Below are positions 2,865-28,085 of a stretch of DNA of 32,000 bases, piece after piece. The notes under the pieces were generated by a model. That model did not search any database. It saw only the letters and a program-made list of their open reading frames with translations, and had not been told where the DNA came from. Position 1 is the first letter of the stretch, and every line of letters begins with the position of its first letter. Position numbers and translations under genes: made by a program. The stretch is from Dickeya dadantii NCPPB 898 (GTDB lineage: Bacteria > Pseudomonadota > Gammaproteobacteria > Enterobacterales > Enterobacteriaceae), in the NCBI RefSeq assembly GCF_000406145.1, contig NZ_CM001976.1:4609545-4641544 (forward strand). Reading direction: 5' to 3'.

Positions 2865-2925
2865 TGCTTATTACGCTCCGTTTTCCGCCTGATCGCATCG
2901 GCACTAAACAGCAACTCCGACCATA

Positions 2926-2942
2926 ACTACGATAATCGTAGT
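2926..2942. promoter_or_regulatory. operator copy 1: ACTACGATAATCGTAGT (perfect 8-1-8 palindrome)
   Basis: One of four copies of ACTACG-N5-CGTAGT. It lies upstream of XRE paralog 1. Confidence 0.6.
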
Positions 2943-2959
2943 ATCTAAAACCCATCATG

Positions 2960-2976
2960 ACTACGAATATCGTAGC
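2960..2976. promoter_or_regulatory. operator copy 2: ACTACGAATATCGTAGC
   Basis: Same motif, 34 bp centre-to-centre from copy 1, immediately upstream of the likely ATG at 2978. Confidence 0.55.
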
Positions 2977-2977
2977 T

Positions 2978-3310
2978 ATGAACACCCGTCAGAAACGCCA
3001 TGATATTTTCAGTCAACGCCTCAAGGATGCTCGCTTACTGCGTGGGCTGTCCCAGAAAGGGCTGGGTATCGCTGCCGGAATAGATGAGTTTGTTGCCAGT
3101 GCACGCATTAATCGCTACGAAAAGGGTGTGCATGAAGCGAATATCGTGACGGCGAAGCGCCTCGCAGAAGCGCTCAATGTCCCTCTGGCTTATTTCTACG
3201 CTGACGATGACAATCTGGCAAAAATGATCCTACTGTTCGCCGACTTGCCCAGAGAACAGCAAGCCAGGTTGCTTGCATCGTTAGACAATAACCAACCCGA
3301 GACAAAGTAA
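2978..3310 (+). CDS. XRE-family HTH transcriptional regulator (paralog 1)
   Basis: HTH region LSQKGLGIAAGIDEFVASARINRYEKGVHEA. The start at 2978 (MNTRQKRHDIF..) is preferred over the ORF-track start 2957 because it aligns with paralog 2 (MKSRPNYHDVF..) and leaves operator copy 2 outside the coding region. Confidence 0.8.
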   Translation: MNTRQKRHDIFSQRLKDARLLRGLSQKGLGIAAGIDEFVASARINRYEKGVHEANIVTAKRLAEALNVPLAYFYADDDNLAKMILLFADLPREQQARLLASLDNNQPETK

Positions 3311-3317
3311 AACTCGC

Positions 3318-3575
3318 TTAACGCGACTTCGCTCTTATCCTGATTTTACGATCAATCAATTCACCACTCCGATCGTAATATCGACTCGGCCATATTTCGG
3401 CCGGATGAATCCCCAATGCTTCCGCAATCAGCCATTCACCTTTGGGCCAGGGCCTGACCAATGCATTCGCCAATGTTGATGCACTCAAACCGGCAGAACG
3501 GGAAAGCGCTGCCATTGAGGTACGTTGCTTGTGTAAAGCAGCAATAATGTCCGCCTGATGCCAATCCTTTTTCAT
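3318..3575 (-). CDS. Ner/Nlp (SfsB-like) family DNA-binding protein
   Basis: DWHQADIIAALHKQRTSMAALSRSAGLSASTLANALVRPWPKGEWLIAEALGIHPAEIWPSRYY closely matches the Mu Ner / E. coli Nlp family signature. Confidence 0.9.
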   Translation of the reverse strand: MKKDWHQADIIAALHKQRTSMAALSRSAGLSASTLANALVRPWPKGEWLIAEALGIHPAEIWPSRYYDRSGELIDRKIRIRAKSR

Positions 3576-3620
3576 CCAGCCTCCTAACTCGTCACTGTTA
3601 AAGGAACAGACACAGCAAAT

Positions 3621-3637
3621 ACTACGTTATTCGTAGT
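3621..3637. promoter_or_regulatory. operator copy 3: ACTACGTTATTCGTAGT
   Basis: Same motif, in the divergent intergenic region between the ner-like gene and XRE paralog 2. Confidence 0.6.
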
Positions 3638-3654
3638 ATCTCACTCAAGAAAAA

Positions 3655-3671
3655 ACTACGATTCTCGTAGT
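3655..3671. promoter_or_regulatory. operator copy 4: ACTACGATTCTCGTAGT
   Basis: Same motif, 34 bp centre-to-centre from copy 3, ending 2 nt before the ATG at 3673. Confidence 0.6.
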
Positions 3672-3672
3672 C

Positions 3673-3993
3673 ATGAAATCAAGACCAAACTACCATGACG
3701 TTTTCTGTCAACGACTTAAGCAAGCCCGGCTTGCGAAAGGCCTGTCACAGAAAAAACTCGGCATCGCCGCCGGAATCGATGAATTTGTGGCAAGCACCCG
3801 CATTAACCGATATGAAAAGGGCGTGCACGAAGCCAGTATTGATACTGCTCAACAACTCGCGAACGCGCTCGACGTCCCGCTGGCATTCTTTTACACCGCT
3901 GATGATGAACTGGCCGAATTGATGCTAGCGTTTTTGAGGCTGTCACCAGAGAAACGGGCAGAGATTTTGACATTAGTGAAAACGGTTGGGTAG
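3673..3993 (+). CDS. XRE-family HTH transcriptional regulator (paralog 2)
   Basis: The HTH (LSQKKLGIAAGIDEFVASTRINRYEKGVHEA) is near-identical to paralog 1. It is divergent from the ner-like gene. Confidence 0.85.
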   Translation: MKSRPNYHDVFCQRLKQARLAKGLSQKKLGIAAGIDEFVASTRINRYEKGVHEASIDTAQQLANALDVPLAFFYTADDELAELMLAFLRLSPEKRAEILTLVKTVG

Positions 3994-4181
3994 TAAATCA
4001 GTGCTCATTTTTTCTACACTGACAGAGATAGGATCACACTTATCACCAGCTATTCAGGAACCTCAGCCCGCGCGGCAATCATCTGGCATGATCCATAGAT
4101 AAGGGGTATGTTAGCCGCTTGCATTCAGGAAGAAACCGTTAGCGATCAGGCCGATCGCATTGGCGGTGCAAGGGAGAAAAA

Positions 4182-6482
4182 ATGGATACGTGTTATCCGA
4201 TACGAAAAGCGGATGGAAAGGATTACGACAGCCTGGAGACGTTACTGAACGTTTTGCGGCACGAACCCGATGGCTGGTGGCTGGCCAGCAGTAACCGACA
4301 GTGGCATGGCGGCATCCACATCAGCCGCCGGAGTGCCCCGGAATCAGTACTGACTTCAATCAACGCCGACAAGGCGGTTCCACTTCAGTGTATCGCCAGC
4401 GGAAACGTGGTGGCATGGCGCATCAATAAAAACTACTGCACCGCGCCGTATGACAAATATCAACTGCGCTATTCCAGCACATTTCTGCTGGTGCGTTCGG
4501 AACATAAGCCTAATCCGGACGACCAGAGCACGTGGTTGACGTTTTACACGCTGTATATGCACCTCGCTCCTGTTTCTGCCTACCCGGTGCTGATGAATTG
4601 TTATCGTGTCAAGCCCAATGTAAATAGCTTACCGACAAACGAATACAACGGCCGGGAAATCAGCGGGCAAAAATTGCCTAAAGCGGGAAATATCACACTC
4701 AAAGAAAATGATTTACTGGTGGTGTCAAAGCAGGAAACATTCAAAGTAGAACGTGAAACTAGTAATGATGTTTTCGGGCTGGCACAGCGCCTGAAAGACG
4801 GGAAAGTGAGCGAAGAAAAATTCTGGGTTTCTCTGCAAGATAAATTTGTCGAACAAACTGCCCCTCGCTATCACCGTATGCCGGAATGGATGACCAAAGC
4901 CGTTGAGCAGGGGAAATATGACACGGTGATCATCCCCGAAGAGACATTTGCGATCAACGCCGGAGACGCGATCGGCTTTTTAGCAGAAGATAACGCTCCC
5001 GACAAATCTGATTCCAATCGTGTGGAGGTAGACTTTTATTCGCACATTGAAGTCATCAGCGTTGATACCAATATGCCCGGTTTTCTCTCTAATCCCAAGG
5101 GGATTAAAACCGGTCGGGCTTTTGTGAAGATAAAAGAAGGAAAGCCGTTATATCAGAGATCCGGTGAAGGTGCCGAAACAACATTCACACCAACAAATGA
5201 TATGACCAAAGGCATGAATGCCGGAAGAATTCTACCTCGCGATAAGACCAACCAGATAGAAGCGCAGGGTACAACGTGGTTTCAAATCACAGCTGATAAC
5301 TGGATTAAATGCGAAGATGTGGACGAGTTAAGCCAACATGACTTATCTAAGCTGGGATTTACTGCGCTGGAAGAAGCATCGACGGACGATTTCGGTTCCC
5401 TGCTAAAAGAAAACTTTCTAAAAGGCATCTTTGACTGGGTATCACAATCCATTCGGGGAGATACCGAGTTTGAATGCCAACAGGGATCCGAGACGTATAA
5501 AAAGCTGGTGAAAGTCATCGACCAGAACAATGACGGTAATTTATCACAATACGAACTGGCTGCGTTTGAGAGACGTATCTTCGAAGGGCTGCATTCGGGA
5601 GAGAATAATGCACCTGAGCTGGTACGTCGGCTGATAGTCAAACATGATAGTGAATGGTTTGGCGACAGCAAGCATAAACACTGGCAGTCTTTTCTTAATA
5701 ACGATAGCTACCCGAAAATGATGCCGTATCTGAAAAAATGGCGAGATGATATGGCATGGATGAGTGAAGTACCTGAGTTTAAATCGGGTAAGCCTGTTTG
5801 GCATTTCCATCCGGTGGAGTTCATTGACATGTTAAACGATGATGACATGTCTCTGAAATGGCTAAAAGTTCCGAAAGGACAGTTAACATTTGATGTTGAG
5901 GGTAATGATGACGAAAAAAGCCCTTGGTTTAGCAGAATCGCTCATTGGCCAGGAAGCGCATCGGGTGTGACTATTGGTCGAGGATATGATTTAGGTCAAC
6001 AGATTACTGCTAATACCGATTTAACTCAGACAAGAATTGGTGAGCCTCTAAAGACATGGTTAATTGAATCTCAAGGATTGTCTTCGTCAAATGCGCAGAA
6101 TAGATTAATGTCAGCCAGCAGAAATATTCGTACATTTCAAATCACAAGAAAACAACAATATGAAATATTTATGATCTCATATCAACGATTGGAGAATGAT
6201 GTAAAGAAAATATGTCAGAAGGAAGAAGCCATTCGTAGATATCATCCAAACTCTAATGCCACACCAGAGCAAGCATGGAACGATATACCAGAAAAAATAA
6301 AAGAATTACTTGTAGATCTACGCTACCGTGGAGATTATACTCCCAGTACCCGCGTTCACTTACAGCATGCCGCATACTCTGGTGACATTAATACTTTTGG
6401 TCGAATTTTATCTAATAGAGCATATTGGCTAAACGTACCAGATGATAGATTCAAAAAGAGGGTAAAATATTATGAAAGTTAA
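4182..6482 (+). CDS. 766-aa putative antibacterial peptidoglycan-hydrolase toxin: split M23/LytM-like N-terminal domain, EF-hand loop, C-terminal pesticin/T4-lysozyme-like domain
   Basis: RBS AGGGAG upstream. M23-like strings are WHGGIHIS, ..FYTLYMHL.. and later INAGDAIGFLAED...DFYSHIEV. A canonical EF-hand loop DQNNDGNLSQYE sits at 5520-5555. The C-terminal LTFDVEGND...WPGSASGVTIGRGYDLGQQ ... LVDLRYRGDY resembles lysozyme-like toxin domains (catalytic Glu candidate at 5898-5900). Confidence 0.75.
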   Translation: MDTCYPIRKADGKDYDSLETLLNVLRHEPDGWWLASSNRQWHGGIHISRRSAPESVLTSINADKAVPLQCIASGNVVAWRINKNYCTAPYDKYQLRYSSTFLLVRSEHKPNPDDQSTWLTFYTLYMHLAPVSAYPVLMNCYRVKPNVNSLPTNEYNGREISGQKLPKAGNITLKENDLLVVSKQETFKVERETSNDVFGLAQRLKDGKVSEEKFWVSLQDKFVEQTAPRYHRMPEWMTKAVEQGKYDTVIIPEETFAINAGDAIGFLAEDNAPDKSDSNRVEVDFYSHIEVISVDTNMPGFLSNPKGIKTGRAFVKIKEGKPLYQRSGEGAETTFTPTNDMTKGMNAGRILPRDKTNQIEAQGTTWFQITADNWIKCEDVDELSQHDLSKLGFTALEEASTDDFGSLLKENFLKGIFDWVSQSIRGDTEFECQQGSETYKKLVKVIDQNNDGNLSQYELAAFERRIFEGLHSGENNAPELVRRLIVKHDSEWFGDSKHKHWQSFLNNDSYPKMMPYLKKWRDDMAWMSEVPEFKSGKPVWHFHPVEFIDMLNDDDMSLKWLKVPKGQLTFDVEGNDDEKSPWFSRIAHWPGSASGVTIGRGYDLGQQITANTDLTQTRIGEPLKTWLIESQGLSSSNAQNRLMSASRNIRTFQITRKQQYEIFMISYQRLENDVKKICQKEEAIRRYHPNSNATPEQAWNDIPEKIKELLVDLRYRGDYTPSTRVHLQHAAYSGDINTFGRILSNRAYWLNVPDDRFKKRVKYYES

Positions 6483-6828
6483 ACATTTAACATATTTCTT
6501 ATCAGTTATTTTCGCAACTCAGTGCTTTGCAGCCTTTTCTGAAAAGGAAAGCAATGAATTGGGAAGAATAAACACTGAATCCCAAAACGATAAAATAACC
6601 ACCATAAAAAACTTGGATCAGGCTATCAAAAAAGCCATTGAAGATAACCCAGAAAAGAAAAGATTAATTTTGGAGCTGAGAAAATCTTGGGATTTAACAA
6701 TAGAAAAAAAATGCCAGTTTGAAATTTCTGAATCTAAAGGAACAGATGCAGAAACCACTAAGATGAACAATTGCCTCGTCGAAAATTACCTGGATGAAAT
6801 AAAGTACTTTGACAGTATACTTCCCTAA
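6472..6828 (+). CDS. secreted DUF1311/LprI-like protein, candidate immunity (lysozyme-inhibitor type) for the upstream toxin
   Basis: Its start overlaps the toxin stop by 11 nt. Signal peptide MKVKHLTYFLSVIFATQCFA. The pattern W-x8-C ... G-x10-C-L-x3 (LRKSWDLTIEKKCQFEISESKGTDAETTKMNNCLVENYL) is typical of DUF1311. GC is about 30%. Confidence 0.65.
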   Translation: MKVKHLTYFLSVIFATQCFAAFSEKESNELGRINTESQNDKITTIKNLDQAIKKAIEDNPEKKRLILELRKSWDLTIEKKCQFEISESKGTDAETTKMNNCLVENYLDEIKYFDSILP

Positions 6829-6900
6829 TTTAAGATTAACAAAATAATAAAAATTAGTCAGCACCAGTATAAACGCATTTAAGTATTGAGGATACCAATC

Positions 6901-7830
6901 ATGAAAATAAAAGCAGCATGCTTATTATGCTTACTAATCAATAATGCAACAATAGCTGACGAATCGAACATTACTTACGGCTACGATAAAAATAAAGGAG
7001 AAATCTATGCAGTAAGTGGGAAGGAAAAAGGAGTTTTAAGTTTTGAAGAGAGTTATACCGGTAATCCTGCTGTTTCGTTTGGATTCTTTAATAATCAACC
7101 ATCAATTATTGTTTCAGCCCGTTCTTTGCATGACTATACCGCTTATATGACATTGCAATTTAAAAACGGTAATTTTTATGCAGACTGTCTATATGTCGAT
7201 ATAAAAAGCAAACAAAACGGTGTTGCTTCGAAAGAAGGCTTGTGCGGGTTAAACACACCGGTTTCAGATGATTATATTGAACTTGTTGAAAAACAAATTA
7301 ATGATGTATCAAATAATATTGACACGGTAGATACATCCTATTTTTTAAATGGAAAAACAACTTACATTCCATTAACTCTCTTTCGTGGGAAAGATAGTTT
7401 AATTTATAAAATATATAAAAATAAAAGTGCCATGCTAAACGATGAATACCAAATATTATTCACTGATAAACATGGGCAATGCCAGTCATACAATAAAAAT
7501 ACGTGGCTAGAATATAACTCAAAAGCTGCGGACAATGCCCATATCAAAGCAGAAAAAAATAAGGATGATCAAATATCATTGATACCTATCGTGGTAGAAG
7601 ATGAAAAAAAATCTAATGATTGTGAAAAATACCCAACATTTAAGGTAAAATCAGATAAATCTTTTTTCTATGATGAAAACAAAAACCCCAAAAACTCTTA
7701 CCTAATAAAAGGGGATGATATTACCTTACTGTCAATTAAGGATGATGATAAATGGTGTCGAGTCAGGTATGTTTCAGAAAAGAACAAAAATACAGATGGT
7801 AATATGCTCTGTTCAACATTGAAACTATAG
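6901..7830 (+). CDS. secreted protein of unknown function (possible second immunity or accessory protein), with an SH3-like C-terminus
   Basis: ATG at 6901 with GAGGA RBS (6888-6892) is preferred over TTG at 6886. Signal peptide MKIKAACLLCLLINNATIA. Very AT-rich. The C-terminal ..LIKGDDITLLSIKDDDKWCRVRYV.. looks SH3b-like. Confidence 0.6.
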   Translation: MKIKAACLLCLLINNATIADESNITYGYDKNKGEIYAVSGKEKGVLSFEESYTGNPAVSFGFFNNQPSIIVSARSLHDYTAYMTLQFKNGNFYADCLYVDIKSKQNGVASKEGLCGLNTPVSDDYIELVEKQINDVSNNIDTVDTSYFLNGKTTYIPLTLFRGKDSLIYKIYKNKSAMLNDEYQILFTDKHGQCQSYNKNTWLEYNSKAADNAHIKAEKNKDDQISLIPIVVEDEKKSNDCEKYPTFKVKSDKSFFYDENKNPKNSYLIKGDDITLLSIKDDDKWCRVRYVSEKNKNTDGNMLCSTLKL

Positions 7831-8034
7831 TAATGATATCGTTTAAGCTGACTAAAATATAAATAAATTCGGATATAATAAATCACCCAAAATGATGGAT
7901 GATATCAAGGTATAACACATCTACATAACGTGGACCTTATGCGCAGGCAGTGCTAATTCTGTGCACAGGTCCGAATCAACATGCAATATTAAAACCGCCA
8001 GAACCCACTGGCACCAGAGACGTTGTATTACTGA

Positions 8035-8451
8035 TTACCGGCTCCACCGGGGAGGAGCGATATTCTCCACGATATCTGAAAAAGAGATCAAAGGATCACG
8101 CCTTTTTACCGCCGCCTCTACACAGTGTTGCACCGGAGATTTATAAGGTGTATCGCCGATAATCACGTTGCTGCTACCGGAAACAATGAGGCCGCCGCAA
8201 TCAATGTCGTCACCTATTCGCGCGGCAGATTTCCCATTAATCGATACCGTAGAAGATCCTGATGCTATTTTTCTGCCATGCACACCATGAGGCCCCTGAG
8301 GGCAGGGACATCCGTGCATTTTTACCGTATCACCAACGCGTGCGGCCGGGAGACCGTTAATCAATACGTCAGCGCTGCCTTCTGTTACCGGAGTATCGGG
8401 AAAGCAATCATGTCCACTTCCGATGTCATTTAAGCGAGCCGCTCCTGGCAT
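8035..8451 (-). CDS. PAAR-domain protein (T6SS spike tip) with a roughly 40-aa C-terminal extension
   Basis: PAAR repeats LPAARVGD and KSAARIGD, plus the typical N-terminus ARLNDIGSGHDC and Cys/His cluster HGCPCPQGPHG. Confidence 0.85.
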   Translation of the reverse strand: MPGAARLNDIGSGHDCFPDTPVTEGSADVLINGLPAARVGDTVKMHGCPCPQGPHGVHGRKIASGSSTVSINGKSAARIGDDIDCGGLIVSGSSNVIIGDTPYKSPVQHCVEAAVKRRDPLISFSDIVENIAPPRWSR

Positions 8452-8781
8452 GTTACGCTCCTTCCTTTACTTGATTGATATTGTTTAACCTGACATACAG
8501 ATCTACTACGCTGCGGTGATGATATGACAACCTGTACACTACCTTTTGACGATCATTATGCCGTGATAACCCTACACCCCACGTCGCAACCCATCATTGA
8601 TGTCGGTCACCCCAATCACCGGTTTTCAAGACCATCGCTGTCGTTCAAATACGTTAAAGCGCCCGGCTCTCCGGTATCAATGCAGCGCTCGTTTTTTCGC
8701 TACGTAATTTCCCTTGTTAAAACGAGATAAAAACACTAAATCTTGACGACATCACGCCCATCATATCCAGAAGGAATACCC

Positions 8782-9000
8782 ATGCTGATTTATAACGTGT
8801 TTGGTCGGATTATTGGAGTCAAGCGACACCAGCAGCAATGGCTGGTATTTCGCGTCAACCTGAATGAAAGAAAGTATTCGCCGCTGCACGAGGTGGTGAT
8901 ACCAGATGATGTGGCGGAAGAGGAAATTCCTGTCTGGCTGGATGATATCTTCCACGAAGCAGCCAGCGATAAATATCCCCAGATATTCCGGATTGAATAA
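8782..9000 (+). CDS. 72-aa hypothetical protein
   Basis: ATG at 8782 with AAGGA RBS (8771-8775) is preferred over the TTG at 8743. No recognisable motif. Confidence 0.5.
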   Translation: MLIYNVFGRIIGVKRHQQQWLVFRVNLNERKYSPLHEVVIPDDVAEEEIPVWLDDIFHEAASDKYPQIFRIE

Positions 9001-9021
9001 TATTTCTGGCGGTTTATCGAC

Positions 9022-9048
9022 ATAAAAAAACCGGGTCGAAACCCGGTT
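9022..9048 (-). terminator. Rho-independent terminator of the DUF1471 gene; the hairpin may also serve the convergent + strand gene
   Basis: Stem AACCGGGT (9029-9036), loop CGAA, stem ACCCGGTT (9041-9048). On the minus strand the hairpin is followed by a T7 run (A-run 9024-9030 on the plus strand). Confidence 0.65.
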
Positions 9049-9138
9049 AACAACAGCATAAGACAGACACAAGGAGGGGGATTATTCATGATGATTGAGG
9101 GTGGGCGAGGGGTACGGTCCCCAACCTCATCAAACACG

Positions 9139-9384
9139 TTATTTATACAGAACCGCGTTGCCGTGCAGCGTGTCGTCACCCTGAACGGACGTGATCTGGA
9201 ACGATTTGGCGCCGGCGGCATCGGCTTTAGCGGCCAGTTGAGCCTGCAGACTATCGAGCGTGCTGGCGCTGGCGGAGATGCTGCCGACTTCCTGACCCTG
9301 CGGGTACTGGATTTCCGTTGCAGCAAAAGCGCCGACAGACAGTGTGCTCAGTGCGATGGCGGTAAAGACAGTTTTCATGTTCAT
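9139..9384 (-). CDS. YdgH/BhsA/McbA-family (DUF1471) small periplasmic stress protein
   Basis: The internal ATG at 9384 (MNMKTVFTAIALSTLSVGAFA signal peptide, AGGAA RBS) is preferred over the ORF-track start at 9492. The C-terminus ..FQITSVQGDDTLHGNAVLYK is typical of the family. Confidence 0.8.
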   Translation of the reverse strand: MNMKTVFTAIALSTLSVGAFAATEIQYPQGQEVGSISASASTLDSLQAQLAAKADAAGAKSFQITSVQGDDTLHGNAVLYK

Positions 9385-9797
9385 GATAGCTTCCTTTTTT
9401 ACGTTTTCGTTGTTGAGGGCGTTTGTAAATGACAAGTCAATTATCACCACAGTAACTATACCCCACTTCACAAAAAGTGCGATCCATATCACACTCTTAT
9501 GTCAGTAATATGAAAAAATAAGGTATTCAATAGATTACCGATATCCACTCTCGCGAATTTTTTCGGATGGGCCGGCAAACGCATTCTGGCGTTATCAAAA
9601 GCCAGTCGGCTCAGGAAAACGCCCCGGAAAAACATGCAATTTATGGAACGCACCGGGAAGAGCGGGAAATCAGCGGGTATACGCATGAACATGCGGAAAG
9701 GCAGCAAGAGTAAAACGCCACACGCGCCAGCCGTCAGACCAGACACGTGTGGCGGGAGATCACGCCCTGTCAGGCAACCGTCGCCGGCGCTGTTTTA

Positions 9798-12485
9798 TCA
9801 GGGATGACTCCACATTGATGGGTAGCTTTCACCATTGCCGTTCACGGCAACAACCCGGTAGTAGTAGCCGCCAGCCGGTACTTTTGAACTGTCGCTGTAG
9901 GCGTTAGCGCTAACGGTGGCGATCGTCCGGTAATCACCGTTTTCACCGGTGGCACGTAATATTTTGTAGCGCTCGGCGCCGGATGCCGCCGTCCAGGATA
10001 GCCCGGTGACGCCGTTGCTGCTGTGCGCTTTCAGGTACAGCGGCGTGCCGGGCACCGGTTTGGCATCACGGGTGCCATCCAGATAGAGCACCACGCTGGC
10101 ACGCGGCCCCACGGTCACATCGCCCGATTGCGTTCGCTGCGAAACCAGATCTTCCGCCGCGTTGAAACCGACCGGTGTTTTCAGCACGTAGCTATTGCTG
10201 GCGTTGGCGTTAATCCCCATCAGATAGTGGCCGAAACGCAAAGCGTAAAAATCGGCCTTACCGCGGAACGGATCGTCGCTGGACGCATCGGTCGGCGTCG
10301 ACCCCAGCGGCAGCAGCTCGCCGGCATAGGCGTTATCCGGCGGATTAGGCGGCGTGTAAGGGGTTTTCTCCGGCATATCGATGATGTTGGGGCGCGCATA
10401 CACCGAGGTCGCTCGGAAGATTGGCGTGGTTTCCAGTACGCCGTATTGGTCATAGCCGGACGTACTAAAGTGGAAGCGCGCCAGACCGTTGATGCCCGTC
10501 CCCGCTTTCGCCTCCCAGTAAGCGCTCAGCCACAGGCGTTCATCTCCTTTTTTGATCGCGGCGATAGCGTTCTCTTCATCCACCCAGGCAAAGTCAGGCT
10601 GCCCGTCCGTCATCGGCAGACGCACACCGCTGTCGCTCGCCGCTTTGATCGTCTGATAATCGGCGAATACGTCCAGCGCTTCAAACGCGGACTCCGACCC
10701 GGCCAGATTGGCGAAAAACTGATTATCGTCCAGCATTTGTCTGGCGTAACCCATGAGCGTCGCATCTTTGCTGGCGGCGGCGACACGCAACGCCTTAGCG
10801 CGTTCGTTGGTATTCACCGCGTCGGCATAAGCGATGTAACCGGCGAAATTGCCGTCGCTTTCATGCGCGCCGCGCCAGGCCAGCAGGCCAATCGCTTCCA
10901 TCGAACGGTAGGTGGCGCCATTACTGATTTCAATCGCCGGACGGCGGAACGGCGCGCGCGCTTTGGTCATTTTCACCATCTGCGTGCGGAAATCCTCATT
11001 ACCGGTGACACGATAATATTCCGCCAGATACGACTGCACTTCCCCATACCCCGCGCCGACATAGCCCCACTCGCGGGTCTGGCCTTTGTCGGTGACCTGA
11101 TAGTAGTTGCTGCCAAACGGTTTCCAACCGCCATCATCCGGCAGGCCATTGCCATTACTGTCCGCCTTATCATCACCGCTCCACGGTAAAAGCCCGACAG
11201 CTTCCTTGATATAGCGCTGCGCGGTTTCCTCCGGAAAAGCGCGCGAATCTTTCAGTACCAGCATGCCTTTGTTGGCGAAGTAGATGTTGGTATTGGCTAT
11301 CAGGTTCTGGTTGCTCAACCTCAGGCGATTTTGCAACCGGCCGTATTCACGGCTGGCAAACAGCATGTCGGCCCAGGCGATACGGCGTTTTTTAGTACCG
11401 GCGGCACCATAGCTGACTGAGGCATTGAGGATATCGGCAGTCAGCATCTCGCGCAGGTAATAGATCGCCTGCCCCTGCGAGCCAAAATTTCCCCCCCAAT
11501 TTTTCACGGTGTTGTTGTCGGCATAGTATTGCGCGGCGTAAGCATCCAGTGTGGCGACGACCTGGCTCACCACCGCCGGATTTTGGTAGCTTTTCAGTTC
11601 CGGAATGGCGTACGCATGAGCGAGATACCGCAAATCTCCGCCGGAAAGATTCGCGGTTGTCGGCTCCTTGCCAAGCAGGCTGGTGATACGGTTATTGATG
11701 GCAACGCGGAACGAACCGTTCGCGCCCAGCATCTCATCGCCCGGGGAAGGACGGGTGCTGACCGCCGGCGCACTGCCCTGCCTTTCGCCCGAAACATCAA
11801 GGAATGGCTCAACATGGGTGTAAGCCCGGTAAATCCCGCGGCTCGGCACGTTCATCGCGTACTGATACGGATTGCTGGCATCCGGGCCGCCGTTGCCGAA
11901 CGGATAGAGACGGCCGGTGGACACAATTTTCAGGGTAACGCTACTGCTGCCTTTGGTCATCGCGTAAGGCAGCAAGGTGGTTGAGTAGAAGAAGCGCCCT
12001 GGCAACGGCTTATTCCAGTGGGTGACGCTGAGCGGCGCATAGTCGCCTTCGTGACGGTAGCCGACCTGATAATCAACGCCATCCCTGACGATATACAAGT
12101 AAAGGCGACCAGTATCGTAGTTACCGTCATCTTCACCCCACAGCTTGACGGAAACGTAGTTACGGCGCAGCGGATCCACCCGCAGGGTAACCGTCAGGCT
12201 GCCGCCATACACGCCTGCCGGGCTGAGCGGCAGTAATTTACGGGCGGATTCGCCCAGCCCACCGGAGAGCGTCTGGCTATTATTTTCGATCAGACTATGG
12301 CTTTTCTCCGACGCGCTGTCGCCAAACGAAACCTGATCAATCGTCCCAACCGCCGTAGCCGCGGCTGATGACGACGTGGCTCCTGAACCCGAACTCTCGG
12401 CGGCAATGGCCGCATGATTTGCCGTTGTAGCCGCCAGCGCCAGCGCAACCAGCCACGCCGGTCTGAACACCGTGTTTTTCTGCAT
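9798..12485 (-). CDS. 895-aa secreted protein with a C-terminal fibronectin-type-III-like domain; possibly a polysaccharide-active enzyme (function uncertain)
   Basis: Signal peptide MQKNTVFRPAWLVALALAATTANHAAIA. The C-terminal LSWTAASGAERYKILRATGENGDYRTIATVSANAYSDSSKVPAGGYYYRVVAVNGNGES is FN3-like. No catalytic family was recognised by eye. Confidence 0.8.
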   Translation of the reverse strand: MQKNTVFRPAWLVALALAATTANHAAIAAESSGSGATSSSAAATAVGTIDQVSFGDSASEKSHSLIENNSQTLSGGLGESARKLLPLSPAGVYGGSLTVTLRVDPLRRNYVSVKLWGEDDGNYDTGRLYLYIVRDGVDYQVGYRHEGDYAPLSVTHWNKPLPGRFFYSTTLLPYAMTKGSSSVTLKIVSTGRLYPFGNGGPDASNPYQYAMNVPSRGIYRAYTHVEPFLDVSGERQGSAPAVSTRPSPGDEMLGANGSFRVAINNRITSLLGKEPTTANLSGGDLRYLAHAYAIPELKSYQNPAVVSQVVATLDAYAAQYYADNNTVKNWGGNFGSQGQAIYYLREMLTADILNASVSYGAAGTKKRRIAWADMLFASREYGRLQNRLRLSNQNLIANTNIYFANKGMLVLKDSRAFPEETAQRYIKEAVGLLPWSGDDKADSNGNGLPDDGGWKPFGSNYYQVTDKGQTREWGYVGAGYGEVQSYLAEYYRVTGNEDFRTQMVKMTKARAPFRRPAIEISNGATYRSMEAIGLLAWRGAHESDGNFAGYIAYADAVNTNERAKALRVAAASKDATLMGYARQMLDDNQFFANLAGSESAFEALDVFADYQTIKAASDSGVRLPMTDGQPDFAWVDEENAIAAIKKGDERLWLSAYWEAKAGTGINGLARFHFSTSGYDQYGVLETTPIFRATSVYARPNIIDMPEKTPYTPPNPPDNAYAGELLPLGSTPTDASSDDPFRGKADFYALRFGHYLMGINANASNSYVLKTPVGFNAAEDLVSQRTQSGDVTVGPRASVVLYLDGTRDAKPVPGTPLYLKAHSSNGVTGLSWTAASGAERYKILRATGENGDYRTIATVSANAYSDSSKVPAGGYYYRVVAVNGNGESYPSMWSHP

Positions 12486-13052
12486 AGGTCAGTCCCTTTT
12501 TCCAGTTTTTTATCATCCGTGCAGTCCTATCAGATGACAATGACAAAACGAATACATCATTACCACACTAATACTTCCATCAATTAACCATAGTTTCTCG
12601 ACGCTATTGATACTTTTTTAGTATCACCTTCCCACGCGTCGTCTACATACCCTAAGCCGACGTCGTCAGGTGGAAACAGCATGTAGAAAAGTCGGGATTA
12701 CAACACATCGCGCTCCTCTGTCGGATCGGCGTCAGTATTTATGGCAACAACCCTGTCCGCCAATTAATCATACCGGCGCTTTATGCCCGAAAAACACCGA
12801 CCAGACGGCGCGTGACCGTTAATCACATCAGACCTCCTGATGGGTTTTATCACGACAACAGAGGGGATTGCTCTGCTGGCAGCGGCCATAATGAGGATAG
12901 AAAAGGAAATAATATGTCAACTAATGAAAATAAACTTTCCTTAAATGAATGCAAATAATCACGCTGGAAAAGCAAGCGGTAAAAACGTTAACATATATCC
13001 CCACCAGGTGAGTTTTGCGTAAAAAGACATAAAAGTGATGACAGGGGGAAAT

Positions 13053-13691
13053 ATGTTAGAAATATTTGATGTGAGTTTTAGCTTAATGTCAAATAACAAG
13101 CTAGATGAGGTGTTTGCACTACGCAAAGGGACATTTAAGGACCGTCTGGACTGGACCGTCAACTGTATTAACGGGATGGAATTTGACGAGTACGATAATG
13201 AACATACCACCTACTTGTTAGGTGTCAAGGAAGGAAAAATCATTTGTAGTGTCAGATTTATAGAAATGAAATATCCCAACATGATTACTGGCACATTTTT
13301 CTCTTATTTCGACGGCCTCAACATTCCCGAAGGGAATTATATTGAATCCAGCCGATTTTTCGTCGACCGCGATCGGGTGAGAAATTTGATTGGCACCCGT
13401 AATCCAGCTTGCCTGACATTATTTCTTGCCATGATCAATTACGCCAGAAAATATCATTATGATGGGATATTCACGATTGTCAGCCACCCGATGCTGACCT
13501 TGTTAAAACGTTCAGGCTGGCGCATTTCCATCATTCAGCAGGGGTTATCAGAAAAACAGGAGAAAATTTATCTGCTGCATCTGCCCACTGACGATGAAAG
13601 CCGATACGCGCTGATCGAGCGCATTACACGGATAACCAACGCCGAATCCGAGCAGCTTACGACCTTGCCTTTGCTGGTCCCACTGGCTTGA
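13053..13691 (+). CDS. expI: acyl-homoserine-lactone synthase (LuxI family)
   Basis: MLEIFDV.. start with GGGGGA RBS. LuxI hallmarks are LRKGTFKDRLDWTV, EFDEYDN, ESSRFFVD and TIVSHPMLTLLKRSGW. It is convergent with a LuxR-type gene, as in soft-rot Pectobacteriaceae. Confidence 0.9.
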   Translation: MLEIFDVSFSLMSNNKLDEVFALRKGTFKDRLDWTVNCINGMEFDEYDNEHTTYLLGVKEGKIICSVRFIEMKYPNMITGTFFSYFDGLNIPEGNYIESSRFFVDRDRVRNLIGTRNPACLTLFLAMINYARKYHYDGIFTIVSHPMLTLLKRSGWRISIIQQGLSEKQEKIYLLHLPTDDESRYALIERITRITNAESEQLTTLPLLVPLA

Positions 13692-14409
13692 TCAGGTTCA
13701 TTTCAACGCCGAGCCGGATAGCATGCTTGGCATTCAGCACGCCCAGTTTTTTCACAACGTTGCCGATATGAAATTTTACTGTACTGGTGGTGATACCGAG
13801 AATAAGCGCAATCTCCTGATAGGTTTTTCCCATACTCGCCCAGTAGAGAATTTCGTTTTCTCTTTGTGAGAAAAGATCGGCTTCCTGCGACTTGCTGTTG
13901 TTTCTGTTTCTGCTCATCTCTCGGTACAGAGAGGTGAGTTTTTCATGCGCTGAAATCAACAGCATTTGCAATTTATCTTTATTATTCTGAATAATTTCTT
14001 CCAGTTCTTCGCTGCGGTGCTCTTCAATCATAAAAGACAAGGCGGCCAGGTTGTTACCCGGATCGTGCAATACAAAGGTATAACCATTAACAATGTCGTA
14101 ATCTTTGGAGAGATTGAATATTCTGGAAAACTTCAATTTTGAACTGATGACCAGATCATCATCCCAGGAGAAAGGGGAAATTTTGTTGATAGCGGTCAGA
14201 ATTACCGGGTCAATATGCTGATAGTTATTATTTCTGTAAATATCAACCCACTCCGTCGGATAGTTGGAGATGATCACAACGTCCGTCGGTTTCTTCTTGT
14301 TCATGATCAAATAGGCGTACTTGGGGTCGCCATAGCTTTTTAACTTTCTGTTAAGATAGCTTTGTATTGTGCTATTGATGAAGTCAACGTTAGAGAATGA
14401 TATAGACAT
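13657..14409 (-). CDS. expR: LuxR-family AHL-responsive transcriptional regulator
   Basis: Start MSISFSNVDF.. at 14409 with GGGAGAG RBS (the ORF-track start 14544 is rejected). It has an autoinducer-binding N-terminal region and a C-terminal HTH ENEILYWASMGKTYQEIALILGITTSTVKFHIGNVVKKLGV. Confidence 0.9.
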   Translation of the reverse strand: MSISFSNVDFINSTIQSYLNRKLKSYGDPKYAYLIMNKKKPTDVVIISNYPTEWVDIYRNNNYQHIDPVILTAINKISPFSWDDDLVISSKLKFSRIFNLSKDYDIVNGYTFVLHDPGNNLAALSFMIEEHRSEELEEIIQNNKDKLQMLLISAHEKLTSLYREMSRNRNNSKSQEADLFSQRENEILYWASMGKTYQEIALILGITTSTVKFHIGNVVKKLGVLNAKHAIRLGVEMNLIKPVGPAKARS

Positions 14410-14797
14410 CCAACTCTCCCAAAATCGCGTGCGACAGCCCAGCCTGACCATAACGGCACGAAAGTATAGTATCAACCTATACCTAAGTCTAACTATCTTT
14501 CCCGATACAAAATCCTTAGAATTTTCAAAAAATAACATCAACACAAAAATAAAAACATCTGATCCGCTTTAAAGATCGGAAAGCCAAATTGGCGCACACC
14601 AGGGAAATATCCGTTAGTTTATTATTTCTATGCCTTAAATAATTCGGGTAGCAGGACAAGGCTCATTATGAGCCAGGTAACGCGGCCCCCCAGTGAATCA
14701 CCGAAAGCTGGCATAAGTCAGCGACGGGGATGAATGCAGGCGGCCAACCTATCTGTCATCCTAAGTATGGCGGGCAATAACGCTGTATTGTTAGCCC

Positions 14798-14840
14798 TTC
14801 TCTCTCTTGTGTTATCCTCCACGATTCGCAGGAGAGAGAA
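14798..14840. promoter_or_regulatory. 9-bp inverted repeat TTCTCTCTC ... GAGAGAGAA in the expR / biosynthetic-operon intergenic region
   Basis: Arms at 14798-14806 and 14832-14840, separated by 25 nt. It lies about 320 bp upstream of the first operon gene. This could be an operator or an RNA hairpin. Confidence 0.3.
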
Positions 14841-15154
14841 AGGTCATTTTCTTCCTCTGCTTATTTTCGCCCGGCACCTTGCCATTCCCTCAAATATCCC
14901 TTTTGTCTGTTCTGTATCTGACGGAATACCCGGATCACATCCTGTTATATCGCGCACGCGCTCCCCGCAGAATGTTGATGATGGAAACATTCGGATAAAA
15001 AACGTGATAACGCCGCTATCAGAATAAACTACACCGATTTTACCGCCGATCTGACGGTATTACTCCTCCCACATCGGCTGGCGTGCAATTTCAAACAAAA
15101 CGCCTGAATAACGCTGGTTATACTCCCGTCAAAGAGACAGATAAGGGGAGTAGA

Positions 15155-15466
15155 ATGGATTATTCGGTAATTATTCATCATGATGATGACACCTTGCATA
15201 CCCTCCTGCGCGACAAACTCAGCGCGATTGGCGTCGATAACGGCCGTATCGCCGAGATCTTTCAGGGAGCCCCCTTGTTCGGTGAAGAGGGGCGGCTGGA
15301 CTCCATCAATATCGTCACCCTGATCGCCATGCTCAGCGACCACTGCGAAGCGGCCTATAACCTGAGCGGCGATTTGTTCGACCTGACGGACGACCGCGTT
15401 TTTGATGCGTTCCAGAATCTGACCAGTCTGACGCGCTTCCTGCGCGAGCGGCTTCGCCATGGCTGA
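15155..15466 (+). CDS. free-standing acyl/peptidyl carrier protein (first gene of the Vfm-type operon)
   Basis: ATG at 15155 with AAGGGGAG RBS (the ORF-track start 15083 is rejected). The canonical phosphopantetheine site is in GRLDSINIVTLIAML. Confidence 0.75.
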   Translation: MDYSVIIHHDDDTLHTLLRDKLSAIGVDNGRIAEIFQGAPLFGEEGRLDSINIVTLIAMLSDHCEAAYNLSGDLFDLTDDRVFDAFQNLTSLTRFLRERLRHG

Positions 15467-16781
15467 CCCCACCCCTCCCGTTGCTGCTGAGGCGGGTTCG
15501 CTGTTCGCCAACGGCTATGTAGAAGAGATTCCTGTTGCCAATATTGCCGACCGCATCGGCACGCCTTTCTATGTTTACAGCGCCCGTCAGCTACGCCGCC
15601 AGCTTCAGCAGCTCCGCCAGCAACTGCCAACCGGAACCGCAATTTATTATTCTTTGAAAGCCAATCCTAATCTTTCGGTGGTTAGAGCGTTGGCGGAACA
15701 GGGGGCGGGGTGTGAGGTCTGCTCGCCAGCCGAGCTGAAAACCGCGTTGGCGGCAGGCGTCTCACCGCAGCACATCCTGTATGTCGGGCCGGGCAAATCT
15801 CTGCCGGCGCTGAAACTCGCCATTGACTGCGGCATCCAGGCAATTGTGGTGGAGTCGGTAACAGAGCTGGATAACCTCAACCGGCTGGCCGCACGGGCCA
15901 ATACCGTGCAGACGGTGGCGCTGCGCATCAATCCGGATTTCAGCAGCGCGCACGCCCGGCTGGTGATGAGCGGCAAACCTACCCAGTTCGGCATGACGCG
16001 GGATACCCTGCATACCGTGCTGGTCAGCCTGCACCGCTGGCCTTCCATTTCCCTGCGCGGTTTTCATGTTTATCTGGGTACCCGAATCCTCAATGCGCAG
16101 GCCATCGCCGACAACACCCGTAATATTCTGCAACTGGCGCTGGATCTCCGCAACACGCACCGGTTAACGCTGGATTTCGTCGATGTCGGCGGCGGTTTCG
16201 GCGTACCCTATTTTCCGAAGGAAACGCCGTTGGATCTGCCGGCGTTAGGCGCGGCCATCGCGTCGATCGTGGCGGATTTCCGCCGCCGGGCCGCCGACAC
16301 GCAAATCATCATCGAACTGGGACGTTATCTGGTGGCGGAAGCCGGCCTGTTCGTCACCCGGGTCAACACCCTGAAAACCGCCGGCGGGAAAACGTTCGCC
16401 GTCTGTGACGGCGGCGCCAATTGCCACAGTGCGGCGGCCGGCCTGAACAGCATGCTGCGCAAAAACTTTCCGTTGTTGCGGCTGGGCGACAACCAGGGGC
16501 GGCCGTTGCAGCCTTATCAGGTCAGCGGACCGCTTTGCACGCCCACCGATCTGCTGGGCGACAATGTGCTGCTACCAACGCTGGAGGTCGACGACCTGAT
16601 CGGCATCACCCACTCCGGCGCTTACGGGCTAACCGCGTCGCCGGGTTCGTTCCTCAGTTTCGGTTACCCGGTGGAAGTGATGGTGGACGGTCGACGCCTC
16701 ACGCTGATACGCCAGCCGGAAACCACGGAACAACTGCTGGCCCGGCAACAGCCGGTCGACCTCTGCGGGGATACGCCATGA
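15459..16781 (+). CDS. PLP-dependent decarboxylase, Orn/DAP/Arg decarboxylase (alanine-racemase fold) family; tentatively vfmK by position
   Basis: PLP lysine in YYSLKANPN. Other family motifs are VDVGGGFGVPY, SGPLCTPTD and HSGAYG. Its start overlaps the carrier-protein stop (ATGGCTGA). Confidence 0.85.
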   Translation: MADPTPPVAAEAGSLFANGYVEEIPVANIADRIGTPFYVYSARQLRRQLQQLRQQLPTGTAIYYSLKANPNLSVVRALAEQGAGCEVCSPAELKTALAAGVSPQHILYVGPGKSLPALKLAIDCGIQAIVVESVTELDNLNRLAARANTVQTVALRINPDFSSAHARLVMSGKPTQFGMTRDTLHTVLVSLHRWPSISLRGFHVYLGTRILNAQAIADNTRNILQLALDLRNTHRLTLDFVDVGGGFGVPYFPKETPLDLPALGAAIASIVADFRRRAADTQIIIELGRYLVAEAGLFVTRVNTLKTAGGKTFAVCDGGANCHSAAAGLNSMLRKNFPLLRLGDNQGRPLQPYQVSGPLCTPTDLLGDNVLLPTLEVDDLIGITHSGAYGLTASPGSFLSFGYPVEVMVDGRRLTLIRQPETTEQLLARQQPVDLCGDTP

Positions 16782-17689
16782 CGTTGTGTATCCAGCCGGA
16801 TGACCTGGTATGGCGCGCTTTTGCGCCCGAAAGCGAGGCCGCGTTGCTGGCCCCACATCCCAGTCAGGCTTTGATGGCGGATTACCTGCGCGCTTTTTTC
16901 CGTTCTCACGACGACCCCCAGGAACCGGACGACGCCCTGCTGACCCGCTGGCTCAACAGCGGCCGCCATACGTTTACCGCGATGATGCAGGCGCTGCTGC
17001 CCGAATTGCAGGCGCGTCATACGCTGCAGCAGCTTGATCTGGTGATGTTCGCTCATTGGACGCCCGACAGCACCCTCGGTTGCGCGGTATCCAACGCGCT
17101 GATCCATGCCTGCGACGCCCGACAGGCGTTCGGGCTGTCGGTGTCGGAGCGCGGGCTGGCGGCGCCGCTGTTTGCGCTGCACGCCATCGACGACTATCTG
17201 GCCAGCGATGAAAACCGGCGCGAGGCGTTGCTGATGATTGCCGATCAGGACGTGGCGCCTTACCCCAGCGAACGGCTGGCGCAGTTGCGTCCCCAAAAGA
17301 ACTGTTGCCTGATGCGGATAGAAAAACGCCCGCCCCAGCAGGCCAGCGGGCTGATATTTGAAGGGTATTATCGCCAACCTTACGCCGAAAGCGGCGACCC
17401 GATCGGAGCCATGCGGCAATTGCTCTCGCGCCTGCCCGCGGCGGACACGCTGACGCTGCTGAGCACCCCGTCGCTGGCGGCGGAACTACAGGGCGCGTTC
17501 CCCGAACACCAGACTGCGGCCGTGGCGGAGTCGTTACTGTGCGCCGCCCCGTTCGTATACCTGAAACACCATGCGCAGCCGGGCCGGCGTTATCTGCTGA
17601 CGGTGCCGGAATCGCGTCACCTTACCGCCTGTGTGTTGCGCTACCAGCCTTGCCACGACGGGCCTTTCACTTGCCCTCCCCGTACCTGA
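16778..17689 (+). CDS. FabH-fold (thiolase-like) protein lacking the catalytic Cys; paralog of 27192-28049
   Basis: ATGA overlap with the decarboxylase stop; the ORF-track 5' extension (16421-16777) overlaps that gene and is rejected. The strings ..MFAHWTPDSTLG..GLSVSERGLAAPLFALHAID..LLMIADQD.. align by eye to the FabH active-site region, but no Cys is present. Confidence 0.7.
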   Translation: MTLCIQPDDLVWRAFAPESEAALLAPHPSQALMADYLRAFFRSHDDPQEPDDALLTRWLNSGRHTFTAMMQALLPELQARHTLQQLDLVMFAHWTPDSTLGCAVSNALIHACDARQAFGLSVSERGLAAPLFALHAIDDYLASDENRREALLMIADQDVAPYPSERLAQLRPQKNCCLMRIEKRPPQQASGLIFEGYYRQPYAESGDPIGAMRQLLSRLPAADTLTLLSTPSLAAELQGAFPEHQTAAVAESLLCAAPFVYLKHHAQPGRRYLLTVPESRHLTACVLRYQPCHDGPFTCPPRT

Positions 17690-17701
17690 GAAGGATGCTC
17701 C

Positions 17702-19285: not shown

Positions 19286-19290
19286 CGTCG

Positions 19291-22644: not shown

Positions 22645-22741
22645 CACTTCCCCAAAATAGCGGTACGACCTGCAAGCAGGCATAAAAAAAAACCGCTGTC
22701 GCCGGTAGTCTGGTACAAACGGTATTGACGGGGGAAAAGTC

Positions 22742-24303: not shown

Positions 24304-24304
24304 C

Positions 24305-24817: not shown

Positions 24818-24852
24818 CCCCGTCGCACCGCTACCATGAAGCAGCACAGGCT

Positions 24853-24989: not shown

Positions 24990-25047
24990 ATGACGCCGGA
25001 CACGCCGTTCGCCCTTTTTCATCCCGTTAACCGTCAGGAGTGCGCTT

Positions 25048-25971: not shown

Positions 25972-26071
25972 CCAAAACGCAATATCGGGCAATACACCAC
26001 AACTATTCCCGATAAGGTACATAATTATCGTGCGAATGGTATTTTTTGCGACTCGACTAACAGGACAGATC

Positions 26072-28049: not shown

Positions 28050-28085
28050 TGGGGGACAGAAACCAGTGCAGGGGCTGAAATAACG

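Follow-up and report, generated by a model that had tools for sequence, protein, structure and literature searches.

We analysed a stretch of 32,000 nucleotides (nt) from Dickeya dadantii NCPPB 898 (contig NZ_CM001976.1, positions 4,609,545 to 4,641,544 of the forward strand; hereafter the window, with position 1 as its first letter). The subject is a group of three consecutive genes, which encode proteins of 766, 118 and 309 amino acids (aa), together with the convergent PAAR gene that follows them. Table 1 lists these genes and the parts into which the 766-aa protein can be divided. The three open reading frames (ORFs), an overlap of 11 nt between the stop end of the 766-aa gene and the start of the 118-aa gene and all motifs quoted in an initial annotation of the window are present as described there. 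Within the 766-aa protein, the motifs are WHGGIH (41-46), YMHLAP (125-130), YSHIEV (286-291), FDVEGND (570-576) and GVTIGRGYDLG (595-605). For the 309-aa gene, a TTG at 6886 is an alternative start that would give 314 aa; the ATG at 6901 is preceded by a GAGGA Shine-Dalgarno sequence. By inspection, the 118-aa and 309-aa proteins show a basic N-terminus, a hydrophobic stretch and a small-residue cleavage-like site, and the 766-aa protein has no signal-peptide-type N-terminus.

A homology search with the 766-aa protein gave 1131 homologues at E<=0.001, including full-length relatives down to E 1e-250. The genes are thus far beyond what chance would produce. Our best explanation is that the 766-aa protein is a cargo effector of a type VI secretion system (T6SS) that belongs to subclass I of the WHIX class, i.e., with the WHIX domain at the N-terminus and a toxin domain at the C-terminus, and that the two smaller proteins are immunity proteins of different specificity. 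We assign this explanation as a whole a probability of about 0.88.

Table 1. Genes of the locus and parts of the 766-aa effector (window positions)
Feature	Position	Strand	Description
Effector ORF	4182-6482	+	766 aa; WP_050570297.1, Dickeya dadantii (exact-sequence look-up)
WHIX region 1	4272-4580	+	aa ~31-133; WHxxxH (W41, H42, H46), FYTLYMHLAP
Variable beta-rich insertion	4581-4931	+	aa 134-250; splits the two WHIX regions
WHIX region 2	4932-5825	+	aa 251-548; D270, H288, E290, KHDSEW, WHFHP (H541, H543, F547) invariant
Pesticin/T4-lysozyme-like muramidase domain (by fold)	5838-6479	+	aa 553-766; candidate catalytic E573, T597, D603
Swapped segment	5822-6519	+	strain-specific; toxin C-terminus and codons 1-16 of the immunity gene, bounded by two recombination breakpoints
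Immunity ORF (118-aa gene)	6472-6828	+	118 aa; WP_038912245.1, Dickeya dadantii (exact-sequence look-up)
Third ORF (309-aa gene)	6901-7830	+	309 aa from ATG; WP_038912246.1, Dickeya dadantii (exact-sequence look-up)
PAAR ORF	8035-8451	-	138 aa, convergent; PF05488 E 2e-24, NF033420 E 4.9e-37

WHIX is a bipartite domain named after its conserved WHxxxH motif (Fridman et al., PLoS Biol 2025, PMC12135965). It alone suffices for T6SS secretion, binds the C-terminal tail of VgrG4 and is mostly fused to peptidoglycan-degrading C-termini, including those of 448 'pesticin lysozyme-like' proteins (PMC12135965). The genes downstream of WHIX effectors encode mostly signal-peptide proteins, some of them with DUF1311/LprI, and more than 98% of the genomes encoding WHIX possess a T6SS (PMC12135965). 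The accession of the window effector, WP_050570297.1, is listed in that study, both in S2 File (the CLANS set of C-termini) and in the file for the Fig 1B tree (S1 Data). Since the exact accession is part of the published WHIX data set, the protein is already known; the effector class, the pesticin-type C-terminus and DUF1311-like immunity partners were all published in 2025 (PMC12135965).

The assignment is also visible in direct comparison. BLASTP against the founding WHIX effector WP_005373349.1, for which we used residues 1-452 as transcribed from the AlphaFold file (S1 File) of PMC12135965, gave E 1e-25 over aa 1-290. Both proteins have W41, H42 and H46 at the same residue numbers and share the stretch FYTLYMHLAP without a difference; for region 2, a short IVKH..W match was not significant (E 0.064). 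In an alignment of 36 homologues, W41, H42, G43, G44, H46, D270, H288, E290, H541, H543 and F547 are invariant. The stretch that separates the two conserved halves has a rather constant length (116 aa here, 113-119 aa in homologues) and evolves faster, i.e., it shows 26-38% identity to homologues vs 47-63% in region 1. AlphaFold2 (AF2) modelled this insertion as strands with a predicted local distance difference test score (pLDDT) of 75-90; its role is described as unknown (PMC12135965). The AF2 model of aa 1-555 reached pLDDT 87 and a predicted template modelling score (pTM) of 0.87. A single-sequence search of the PDB with the effector returned 0 matches.

Inside WHIX region 2 we also noticed a near-canonical EF-hand-like loop, D447-E458 (5520-5555, sequence DQNNDGNLSQYE). 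Support for it is weak, i.e., a Pfam EF-hand match near aa 440-460 and polcalcin matches at E 0.6-1 in a PDB profile search, and its conservation is partial (D447 in 24/35 and E458 in 25/35 homologues). TseP of Aeromonas dhakensis is likewise reported to carry an EF-hand, the role of which is unknown (Wang et al., eLife 2025, PMC11893102).

Among the homologues, the WHIX-type N domain recurs with various C-termini, namely glycoside hydrolase family 19 (GH19), pesticin (PF16754), glucosaminidase (PF01832), CHAP (PF05257) and PF21277. The first ~72% of the window effector is found with 83-99% identity in other Dickeya proteins that end in GH19. Full-length homologues of ~45% identity that carry PF16754 come from Enterobacter, Salmonella arizonae, Pantoea, Citrobacter and E. 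coli. Judged by these sequence relations, the effector belongs to the polymorphic toxins, and its N-terminal module is the constant part.

The initial annotation had assigned the N domain to a split M23/LytM peptidase. Its split motif set is real and conserved, and so is its HGGIH motif; reading the latter as a degenerate M23 HxxxD was not supported, since the motif is the WHxxxH signature of WHIX. Instead of the M23 motifs HxxxD and HxH, the N domain has HxxxH (H42, H46) and S-H-I-E (H288, E290), respectively. In Pfam, the full effector has no PF01551/M23 match at E<=0.1, and eight constructs with the insertion deleted gave none even at E<=10. A comparison of the N domain with six M23 domains using hhalign reached a probability of ~1%. 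A PDB profile search with the N-domain alignment returned only polcalcin EF-hands (the above E 0.6-1). For the aa 1-555 model, Foldseek found nothing in the PDB beyond a probability of 0.09 and TM<=0.12, with M23 absent from the top 50, although a split sub-domain could escape detection in such a search. We therefore rejected the M23 fold as not demonstrable by Pfam, hhalign, PDB profile and Foldseek searches.

These results bear on a possibility raised by the initial annotation, namely that the effector has two warheads. WHIX would then also be a Zn-dependent amidase of degenerate M23/LytM ancestry, such that the protein cuts peptide stems as well as glycan, and both activities would have to be blocked by the 118-aa immunity protein alone, in the manner of TsiP. 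TseP, which is cited as a secreted WHIX-containing protein (PMC12135965), provides the precedent. Its N domain is reported as a Zn-dependent amidase that needs the WHxxxH histidines H19 and H23 among other His/Glu residues and that was superposed on the M23 structure 3SLU, and TsiP inhibits both TseP halves (PMC11893102). In the window protein, the residues H42, H46, D270, H288, E290, H541 and H543, which are invariant in 35 homologues, would fit a metal site. Furthermore, unspliced hhalign alignments pair WHGGIH/HYGVDF, VPLQCIASGNVVA/TPVKAISSGKIVEA and YTLYMHL/RQWYMHL in the order known from M23. On the other hand, neither the insertion-deleted constructs nor hhalign nor Foldseek of the pTM 0.87 model linked the N domain credibly to M23, and the histidine of 'YxHL', H127, which would be the M23-type catalytic His, is Gly in 20/35 homologues. 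On its own, the WHIX domain of Awe1 had no toxic effect in the periplasm of E. coli (PMC12135965), and the toxicity of TseP was abolished by mutation in its C domain alone (PMC11893102). Since we found no relationship to M23, the idea of two warheads depends solely on the in-vitro amidase claim for TseP, and we consider it a minority option, clearly less probable than a single toxic domain.

Given the missing M23 signal, the non-toxic WHIX of Awe1 and the C-domain dependence of TseP, we treat the N domain as a loading domain; a secondary enzymatic activity is possible and unproven. A further variant is more speculative and, to our judgement, rather doubtful: WHIX could be a working metal-dependent amidase and a VgrG adaptor at once, with H42, H46, D270, H288, E290, H541 and H543 as active site and a cavity that holds the VgrG tail first and cleaves the prey cell wall after release. 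If true, it would reconcile two conflicting papers from 2025, i.e., the non-toxic loading domain and the TseP-N amidase, and one 118-aa DUF1311-like protein would have to neutralise two active sites that are unrelated to each other. An enzymatic role of WHIX would concern the whole family and would not be special to this window.

For the C-terminal domain, the lysozyme/pesticin-like assignment of the initial annotation was confirmed by structure comparison. The AF2 model of the full effector (pLDDT 85, pTM 0.72) matched 11 pesticin chains in Foldseek (4arm, 4aqn, 4epf; E 3.7e-5 to 1e-3, probability 1.00), followed by T4 lysozymes. This is a similarity in fold, since the sequence identity to pesticin is only 13-15%. 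The residues E573, T597 and D603 are invariant in 24/24 pesticin-type homologues and show a spacing of 24/6 vs 23/6 for E178, T201 and D207 of pesticin, which are sites of inactivating mutations according to the titles of PDB entries. The equivalence of both triads was derived from motif position and not from a residue-level structural alignment. The Foldseek match to pesticin and the E/T/D triad together support the lysozyme-like reading. That is, the modelled fold supports aa 553-766 as a pesticin/T4-lysozyme-like muramidase, which would presumably be enzymatically active. Many of the 45%-identical homologues have a precomputed PF16754 match.

We aligned the window with the locus of a D. dadantii strain whose effector ends in GH19 (L002; the GH19 allele). 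Three segments match in blastn, i.e., 2924-5821 (96%), 6520-7849 (92%) and 7944-9605 (95%), while 5822-6519 has no match in that locus. The left breakpoint (5821/5822) lies at codon 547, i.e., at the last invariant WHIX residue F547 (WHFHPVEF), and the right breakpoint (6519/6520) at codon 17 of the immunity gene, inside the signal peptide. Compared with the GH19 alleles of Dickeya, the N domain shows 83-98% identity and the C domain 16-25%. Compared with pesticin-type alleles of Enterobacter, Salmonella and Pantoea, the values are 35-55% for the N domain and 63-66% for the C domain. These per-domain identities confirm the swap: the effector gene is a mosaic, in which a resident Dickeya WHIX allele had its toxin tip and the start of its immunity gene exchanged by recombination after F547. 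GC content steps down along the locus from 47% in the N part to 37% in the C part and ~32% in both immunity genes; a comparable step, with the C domain below the N part, is reported for TseP (PMC11893102).

The gene that overlaps the effector encodes the 118-aa protein. A 118-aa homologue with the same 11-nt overlap stands behind a pesticin-type WHIX effector in Enterobacter (L004, L005), Pantoea agglomerans (L006) and S. enterica subsp. arizonae (L007), and the window protein shows 44-50% identity to them. The best argument for a cognate immunity role is that effector and 118-aa protein stay paired in different genera. The pairing is thus a direct observation, and the 118-aa protein would, as a cognate periplasmic immunity protein, inhibit its neighbour.

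A word-indexed homologue search with the 118-aa protein returned Dickeya copies only; an exhaustive phmmer search provided the sequences for a 26-sequence profile (32 cluster representatives). With a profile of 6 sequences, the DUF1311 structure 3gi7 was the top PDB match (E 4.9e-3), and with the 26-sequence profile it was the sole significant one (E 4.5e-4), with Trp and both Cys aligned. Among the relatives themselves, PF07007 matches 1/6 at E 0.0094 and 1/26 at E 0.041. An hhalign comparison with the PF07007-annotated protein of the Siccibacter locus (L008) gave 79% at E 1.6e-5. Within the family, W73 and C81 are invariant and C101 nearly so (90% or more). Based on these profile comparisons, the 118-aa protein appears to be a distant DUF1311/LprI relative. 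The DUF1311/LprI-like immunity candidate of the initial annotation was therefore a good call, given the 3gi7 and hhalign matches and the pairing in three other genera. With PF07007, 3gi7 and mycobacterial LprI it shares a small, secreted and helical build and a conserved Trp and two Cys in the same register. It differs in that it is a single short domain below the Pfam cut-off, and inhibition of a pesticin-type enzyme is only putative.

In GH19-allele Dickeya, a 135-aa gene is an 83%-identical homologue of the window's 118-aa gene that was retained without its toxin; tblastn found no remnant of a pesticin-type toxin upstream of it (L001). One of the Enterobacter contigs, JASCAN010000032.1 (L005), consists of a 7,197-bp unit that is repeated ~3x within 21.7 kb. 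Each unit carries two LysR genes, a WHIX-pesticin effector, the 118-aa immunity gene and a phage-type integrase, which points to tandem amplification or to a circular island that was excised and then assembled as a concatemer.

The 309-aa protein has no Pfam and no PADLOC match. Its 90%-identity cluster has 29 members from D. dadantii and D. solani, and the gene is present in Dickeya strains of either toxin allele, including those with a GH19-ending effector. Homologues of 41-47% identity are found 2 nt downstream of WHIX effectors that stand behind vgrG in T6SS clusters, namely in Siccibacter (L008), in three related contigs (L009-L011) and in L012. The three contigs have the order vgrG, DUF3828, 920-aa effector, 309-aa gene, PAAR and tssM. 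All these effectors carry MWHGGIH, and their C-termini are GH19-like with 68-76% identity among themselves. Relative to the GH19 allele of Dickeya, these C-termini show 32-40% identity over 62-129 aligned aa, and nothing relative to the C-terminus of the window effector; neither tblastn nor blastp found such a GH19-like C-terminus in the window. No 309-aa homologue is present at the pesticin-type loci outside Dickeya (Enterobacter, Pantoea, S. arizonae). Given the pairing with the GH19-like subtype and the absence from pesticin-type loci, the 309-aa gene is best read as an orphan immunity gene. That is, its family is paired in genomes with one GH19-like WHIX subtype that is absent here, against which the protein would confer immunity. 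Just upstream of it, at 6809-6836, lies a promoter-like site (TTGACA-16-TAAGAT, 10/12 matches), from which the gene could be expressed independently, although the promoter scan as a whole did not exceed shuffled expectation.

The initial annotation had instead proposed that the 309-aa protein neutralises the other domain of the effector, i.e., that it is a second cognate immunity protein that guards the N domain. The protein is indeed secreted, encoded on the same strand and located beside the same N domain in Dickeya whatever the C-terminal allele, and double-blade WHIX effectors need two immunity proteins (PMC12135965). In contrast, the WHIX-pesticin loci of Enterobacter, Pantoea and S. arizonae manage with the 118-aa gene only, and the homologues outside Dickeya always follow the one GH19-like C-terminus. 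In GH19-allele Dickeya the gene is found within an array of secreted-protein genes, as the fourth gene downstream of the effector, and several of its copies in D. solani and D. dadantii are cut short at 132-226 aa. We thus regard a guard of the N domain as very unlikely and keep to an orphan immunity gene.

The array just mentioned extends from the effector to the PAAR gene in GH19-allele Dickeya and comprises five additional genes for secreted proteins (158, 247, 135, 241 and 181 aa), of which the 247-aa one is on the reverse strand. Families of several of them recur in arrays of Pantoea and Siccibacter. Such arrays downstream of WHIX effectors span 8376-12651 in L001 (Dickeya), 9044-12334 in L006 (Pantoea) and 8268-14583 in L008 (Siccibacter). 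Shared families are L001_158, L001_181, L006_163 and L008_161 at 35-53% identity as well as L001_241 with L008_261, and the 309-, 241- and 261-aa families have a short C-terminal stretch of ~30-80 aa in common. The arrays look like a common pool of orphan immunity genes. Orphan immunity arrays downstream of polymorphic toxin loci are known from T6SS auxiliary clusters, Rhs loci and contact-dependent inhibition (CDI) loci. The Dickeya locus resembles them in its conserved delivery part, the swapped toxin tip with its immunity gene and the toxin-less immunity genes kept downstream. It differs in that the array of the window is down to one orphan (309 aa), while GH19-allele Dickeya have four or five.

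Concerning delivery, the initial annotation had noted that no vgrG, hcp or Rhs gene is adjacent and that the PAAR gene is convergent, which our ORF and profile scans of the window reproduced. It had concluded that the route is unknown, which the comparison with other genomes does not uphold. The homologous pair of effector and immunity gene in Pantoea agglomerans begins 12 nt behind vgrG within the order hcp, clpV, vgrG, effector, immunity, further genes, PAAR and tssM, and the GH19-type WHIX relatives (L008, L009-L011, L012) are also placed after vgrG. TseP interacts with VgrG2 (PMC11893102), and the WHIX domain binds the VgrG4 tail (PMC12135965). Since homologous pairs directly follow vgrG and both WHIX and TseP are loaded on VgrG, VgrG-dependent T6SS export is the likeliest route. 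The PAAR gene beside the window pair lends this indirect support. By this analogy, the effector is most likely exported on a VgrG that is encoded elsewhere in the genome.

A different route would be a released, T6SS-independent bacteriocin of the pesticin type. Its N-terminal 550 aa would serve receptor binding and translocation, and the periplasmic protein would have the role that the immunity protein Pim has for pesticin. A killing domain of pesticin fold, a periplasmic immunity protein and the lack of vgrG or hcp nearby would all suit such a bacteriocin, as would the mobile, IS-flanked (insertion sequence) region and the integrase or IS genes that flank the Enterobacter and Salmonella copies. 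Yet, the N domain is homologous to a domain that is sufficient for T6SS export, and WHIX-encoding genomes nearly always (>98%) have a T6SS (PMC12135965). In T6SS clusters, homologous pairs are enclosed by vgrG on one side and PAAR/tssM on the other. Moreover, the Foldseek matches of the full-length model span ~245 columns, i.e., the size of the C domain, and the model of the N domain alone matches nothing in the PDB. Given the homology of WHIX to a T6SS export domain and the placement of homologous pairs in T6SS clusters, we rejected the released bacteriocin, which we hold to be hardly credible, in favour of a T6SS cargo effector.

Some observations weigh against this explanation. Neither vgrG nor hcp, Rhs or T6SS core genes are among the larger ORFs of the 32-kb window; a carrier VgrG would have to be encoded outside of it, and secretion of the window effector is predicted by analogy. 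The WHIX-linked VgrGs compared have no obvious C-terminal tail motif in common. In Pfam, Pesticin (PF16754) matches aa 593-715 with E 2.6e-4 and 21.4 bits, which is under the cut-off of 25.8, and PF07007 (DUF1311/LprI) does not match the 118-aa protein of the window itself. For the 309-aa family, the GH19 partner subtype was not seen in any Dickeya locus examined, and we infer the orphan-immunity role from gene neighbourhoods only.

The PAAR gene is syntenic in the Dickeya loci L001-L003, and the members of its cluster come from D. dadantii (including strain 3937), D. solani, D. fangzhongdai and D. undicola. It is an orphan gene for a T6SS spike-tip protein that is conserved at the locus across Dickeya species. 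The protein has a C-terminal extension of ~40 aa past the PAAR domain. Divergently paired with it is a gene for a small DUF7661 protein (8743-9000, forward strand; PF24697 E 7e-25), for which PADLOC gave no match; both genes are conserved here in Dickeya.

Taken together, the locus would act as follows. By analogy with Awe1-VgrG4 and TseP-VgrG2, the WHIX domain (~548 aa) would fix the effector to a VgrG spike at the C-terminal tail of the latter. Fired by the T6SS, the effector would reach the periplasm of neighbouring Gram-negative cells, where the C-terminal 214 aa would cut peptidoglycan glycan strands via E573, T597 and D603. The translationally coupled and Sec-exported 118-aa protein would bind and block the muramidase in the periplasm and thus protect the producer and its kin. 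The secreted 309-aa protein would protect against WHIX effectors of the GH19-like subtype fired by other bacteria. The initial annotation was thus partly right: a lysozyme-like toxin with a DUF1311-like immunity protein is supported, while WHIX was missed, the 309-aa protein was misassigned and delivery was wrongly left open.

With WHIX subclass I effectors with a pesticin lysozyme-like C-terminus (PMC12135965), the window effector shares a WHxxxH motif at the same residues as in the founder, a bipartite domain split by an insert, a peptidoglycan-targeting C-terminus and a DUF1311-like signal-peptide neighbour. There is no difference in kind; the window copy is not beside vgrG, is located in an island flanked by IS and AbiD genes, and is accompanied by a convergent PAAR gene and, in addition, by an orphan immunity gene. 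With TseP (PMC11893102), it has in common a long N domain with histidines in HxxxH spacing (in TseP the essential H19 and H23), an EF-hand or EF-hand-like loop, a C domain of lower GC content than the N part that cleaves glycan in TseP and would do so here, a periplasmic immunity protein and, by prediction for the window effector, a VgrG carrier. The C domain of TseP was solved with the phage endolysin 4OK7 as search model and compared with 1LZC (PMC11893102), so it differs in not being pesticin-like. Furthermore, TseP is encoded downstream of its carrier vgrG2, while the window effector is not next to vgrG. The N-domain amidase activity was shown for TseP and two homologues only, and the window protein was compared with TseP by description. 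Pesticin of Yersinia pestis (4aqn, 4arm, 4epf) and pesticin-like T6SS domains, e.g., of VgrG3cp, have the muramidase fold and the E...T.....D pattern in common with the window effector. Pesticin itself enters via an outer-membrane receptor by its own N-terminal domains, where the window effector has WHIX.

No carrier vgrG stands immediately upstream of the effector; this side holds an IS, AbiD and three genes for helix-turn-helix (HTH) regulators. Of the HTH genes, two are XRE/'control protein'-like paralogues (2957-3310 and 3673-3993, ~70% nucleotide identity to each other) and enclose a Ner/SfsB-like HTH_35 gene on the reverse strand (3318-3575). In Dickeya, this HTH block (2957-3993) keeps its place right before the WHIX effector, which it could regulate. 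A promoter/terminator scan of 3900-8700 gave results not above shuffled expectation. Further left, the flank holds the transposase genes orfA (166-417) and orfB (441-1277) of an IS3-family element (166-1277), followed by an AbiD/Abi_2 abortive-infection gene (1598-2548; PF07751 E 4.9e-52, PADLOC AbiD E 1e-58). In GH19-allele D. dadantii, AAA, ASCH and acetyltransferase genes replace this IS3/AbiD flank, such that synteny begins only at window position 2924.

To the right of the locus, an ORF of 895 aa on the reverse strand (9798-12485) has high GC content, a signal-like N-terminus and no Pfam match at E<=1e-5. A LuxI/LuxR-type quorum-sensing pair lies within 13035-14544, i.e., an autoinducer synthase gene (E 2e-90) and a convergent, overlapping gene for an autoinducer-binding regulator. 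It is followed at 15459-31987 by a cluster of 60% GC content that encodes a pyridoxal phosphate (PLP) decarboxylase, three AMP-binding enzymes, acyl-CoA dehydrogenases and a histidine kinase. Together, the quorum-sensing pair and the cluster (13035-31987) may resemble the vfm signalling cluster of Dickeya.

As effector class and this very accession are already published, our findings add little that is new. What the window provides is a clean natural example of toxin-tip swapping, with a retained immunity gene for a toxin subtype that is absent. Dickeya strains differ in the cell-wall toxin that is loaded on an otherwise identical adaptor, which could underlie strain incompatibility in the ecology of these plant pathogens.

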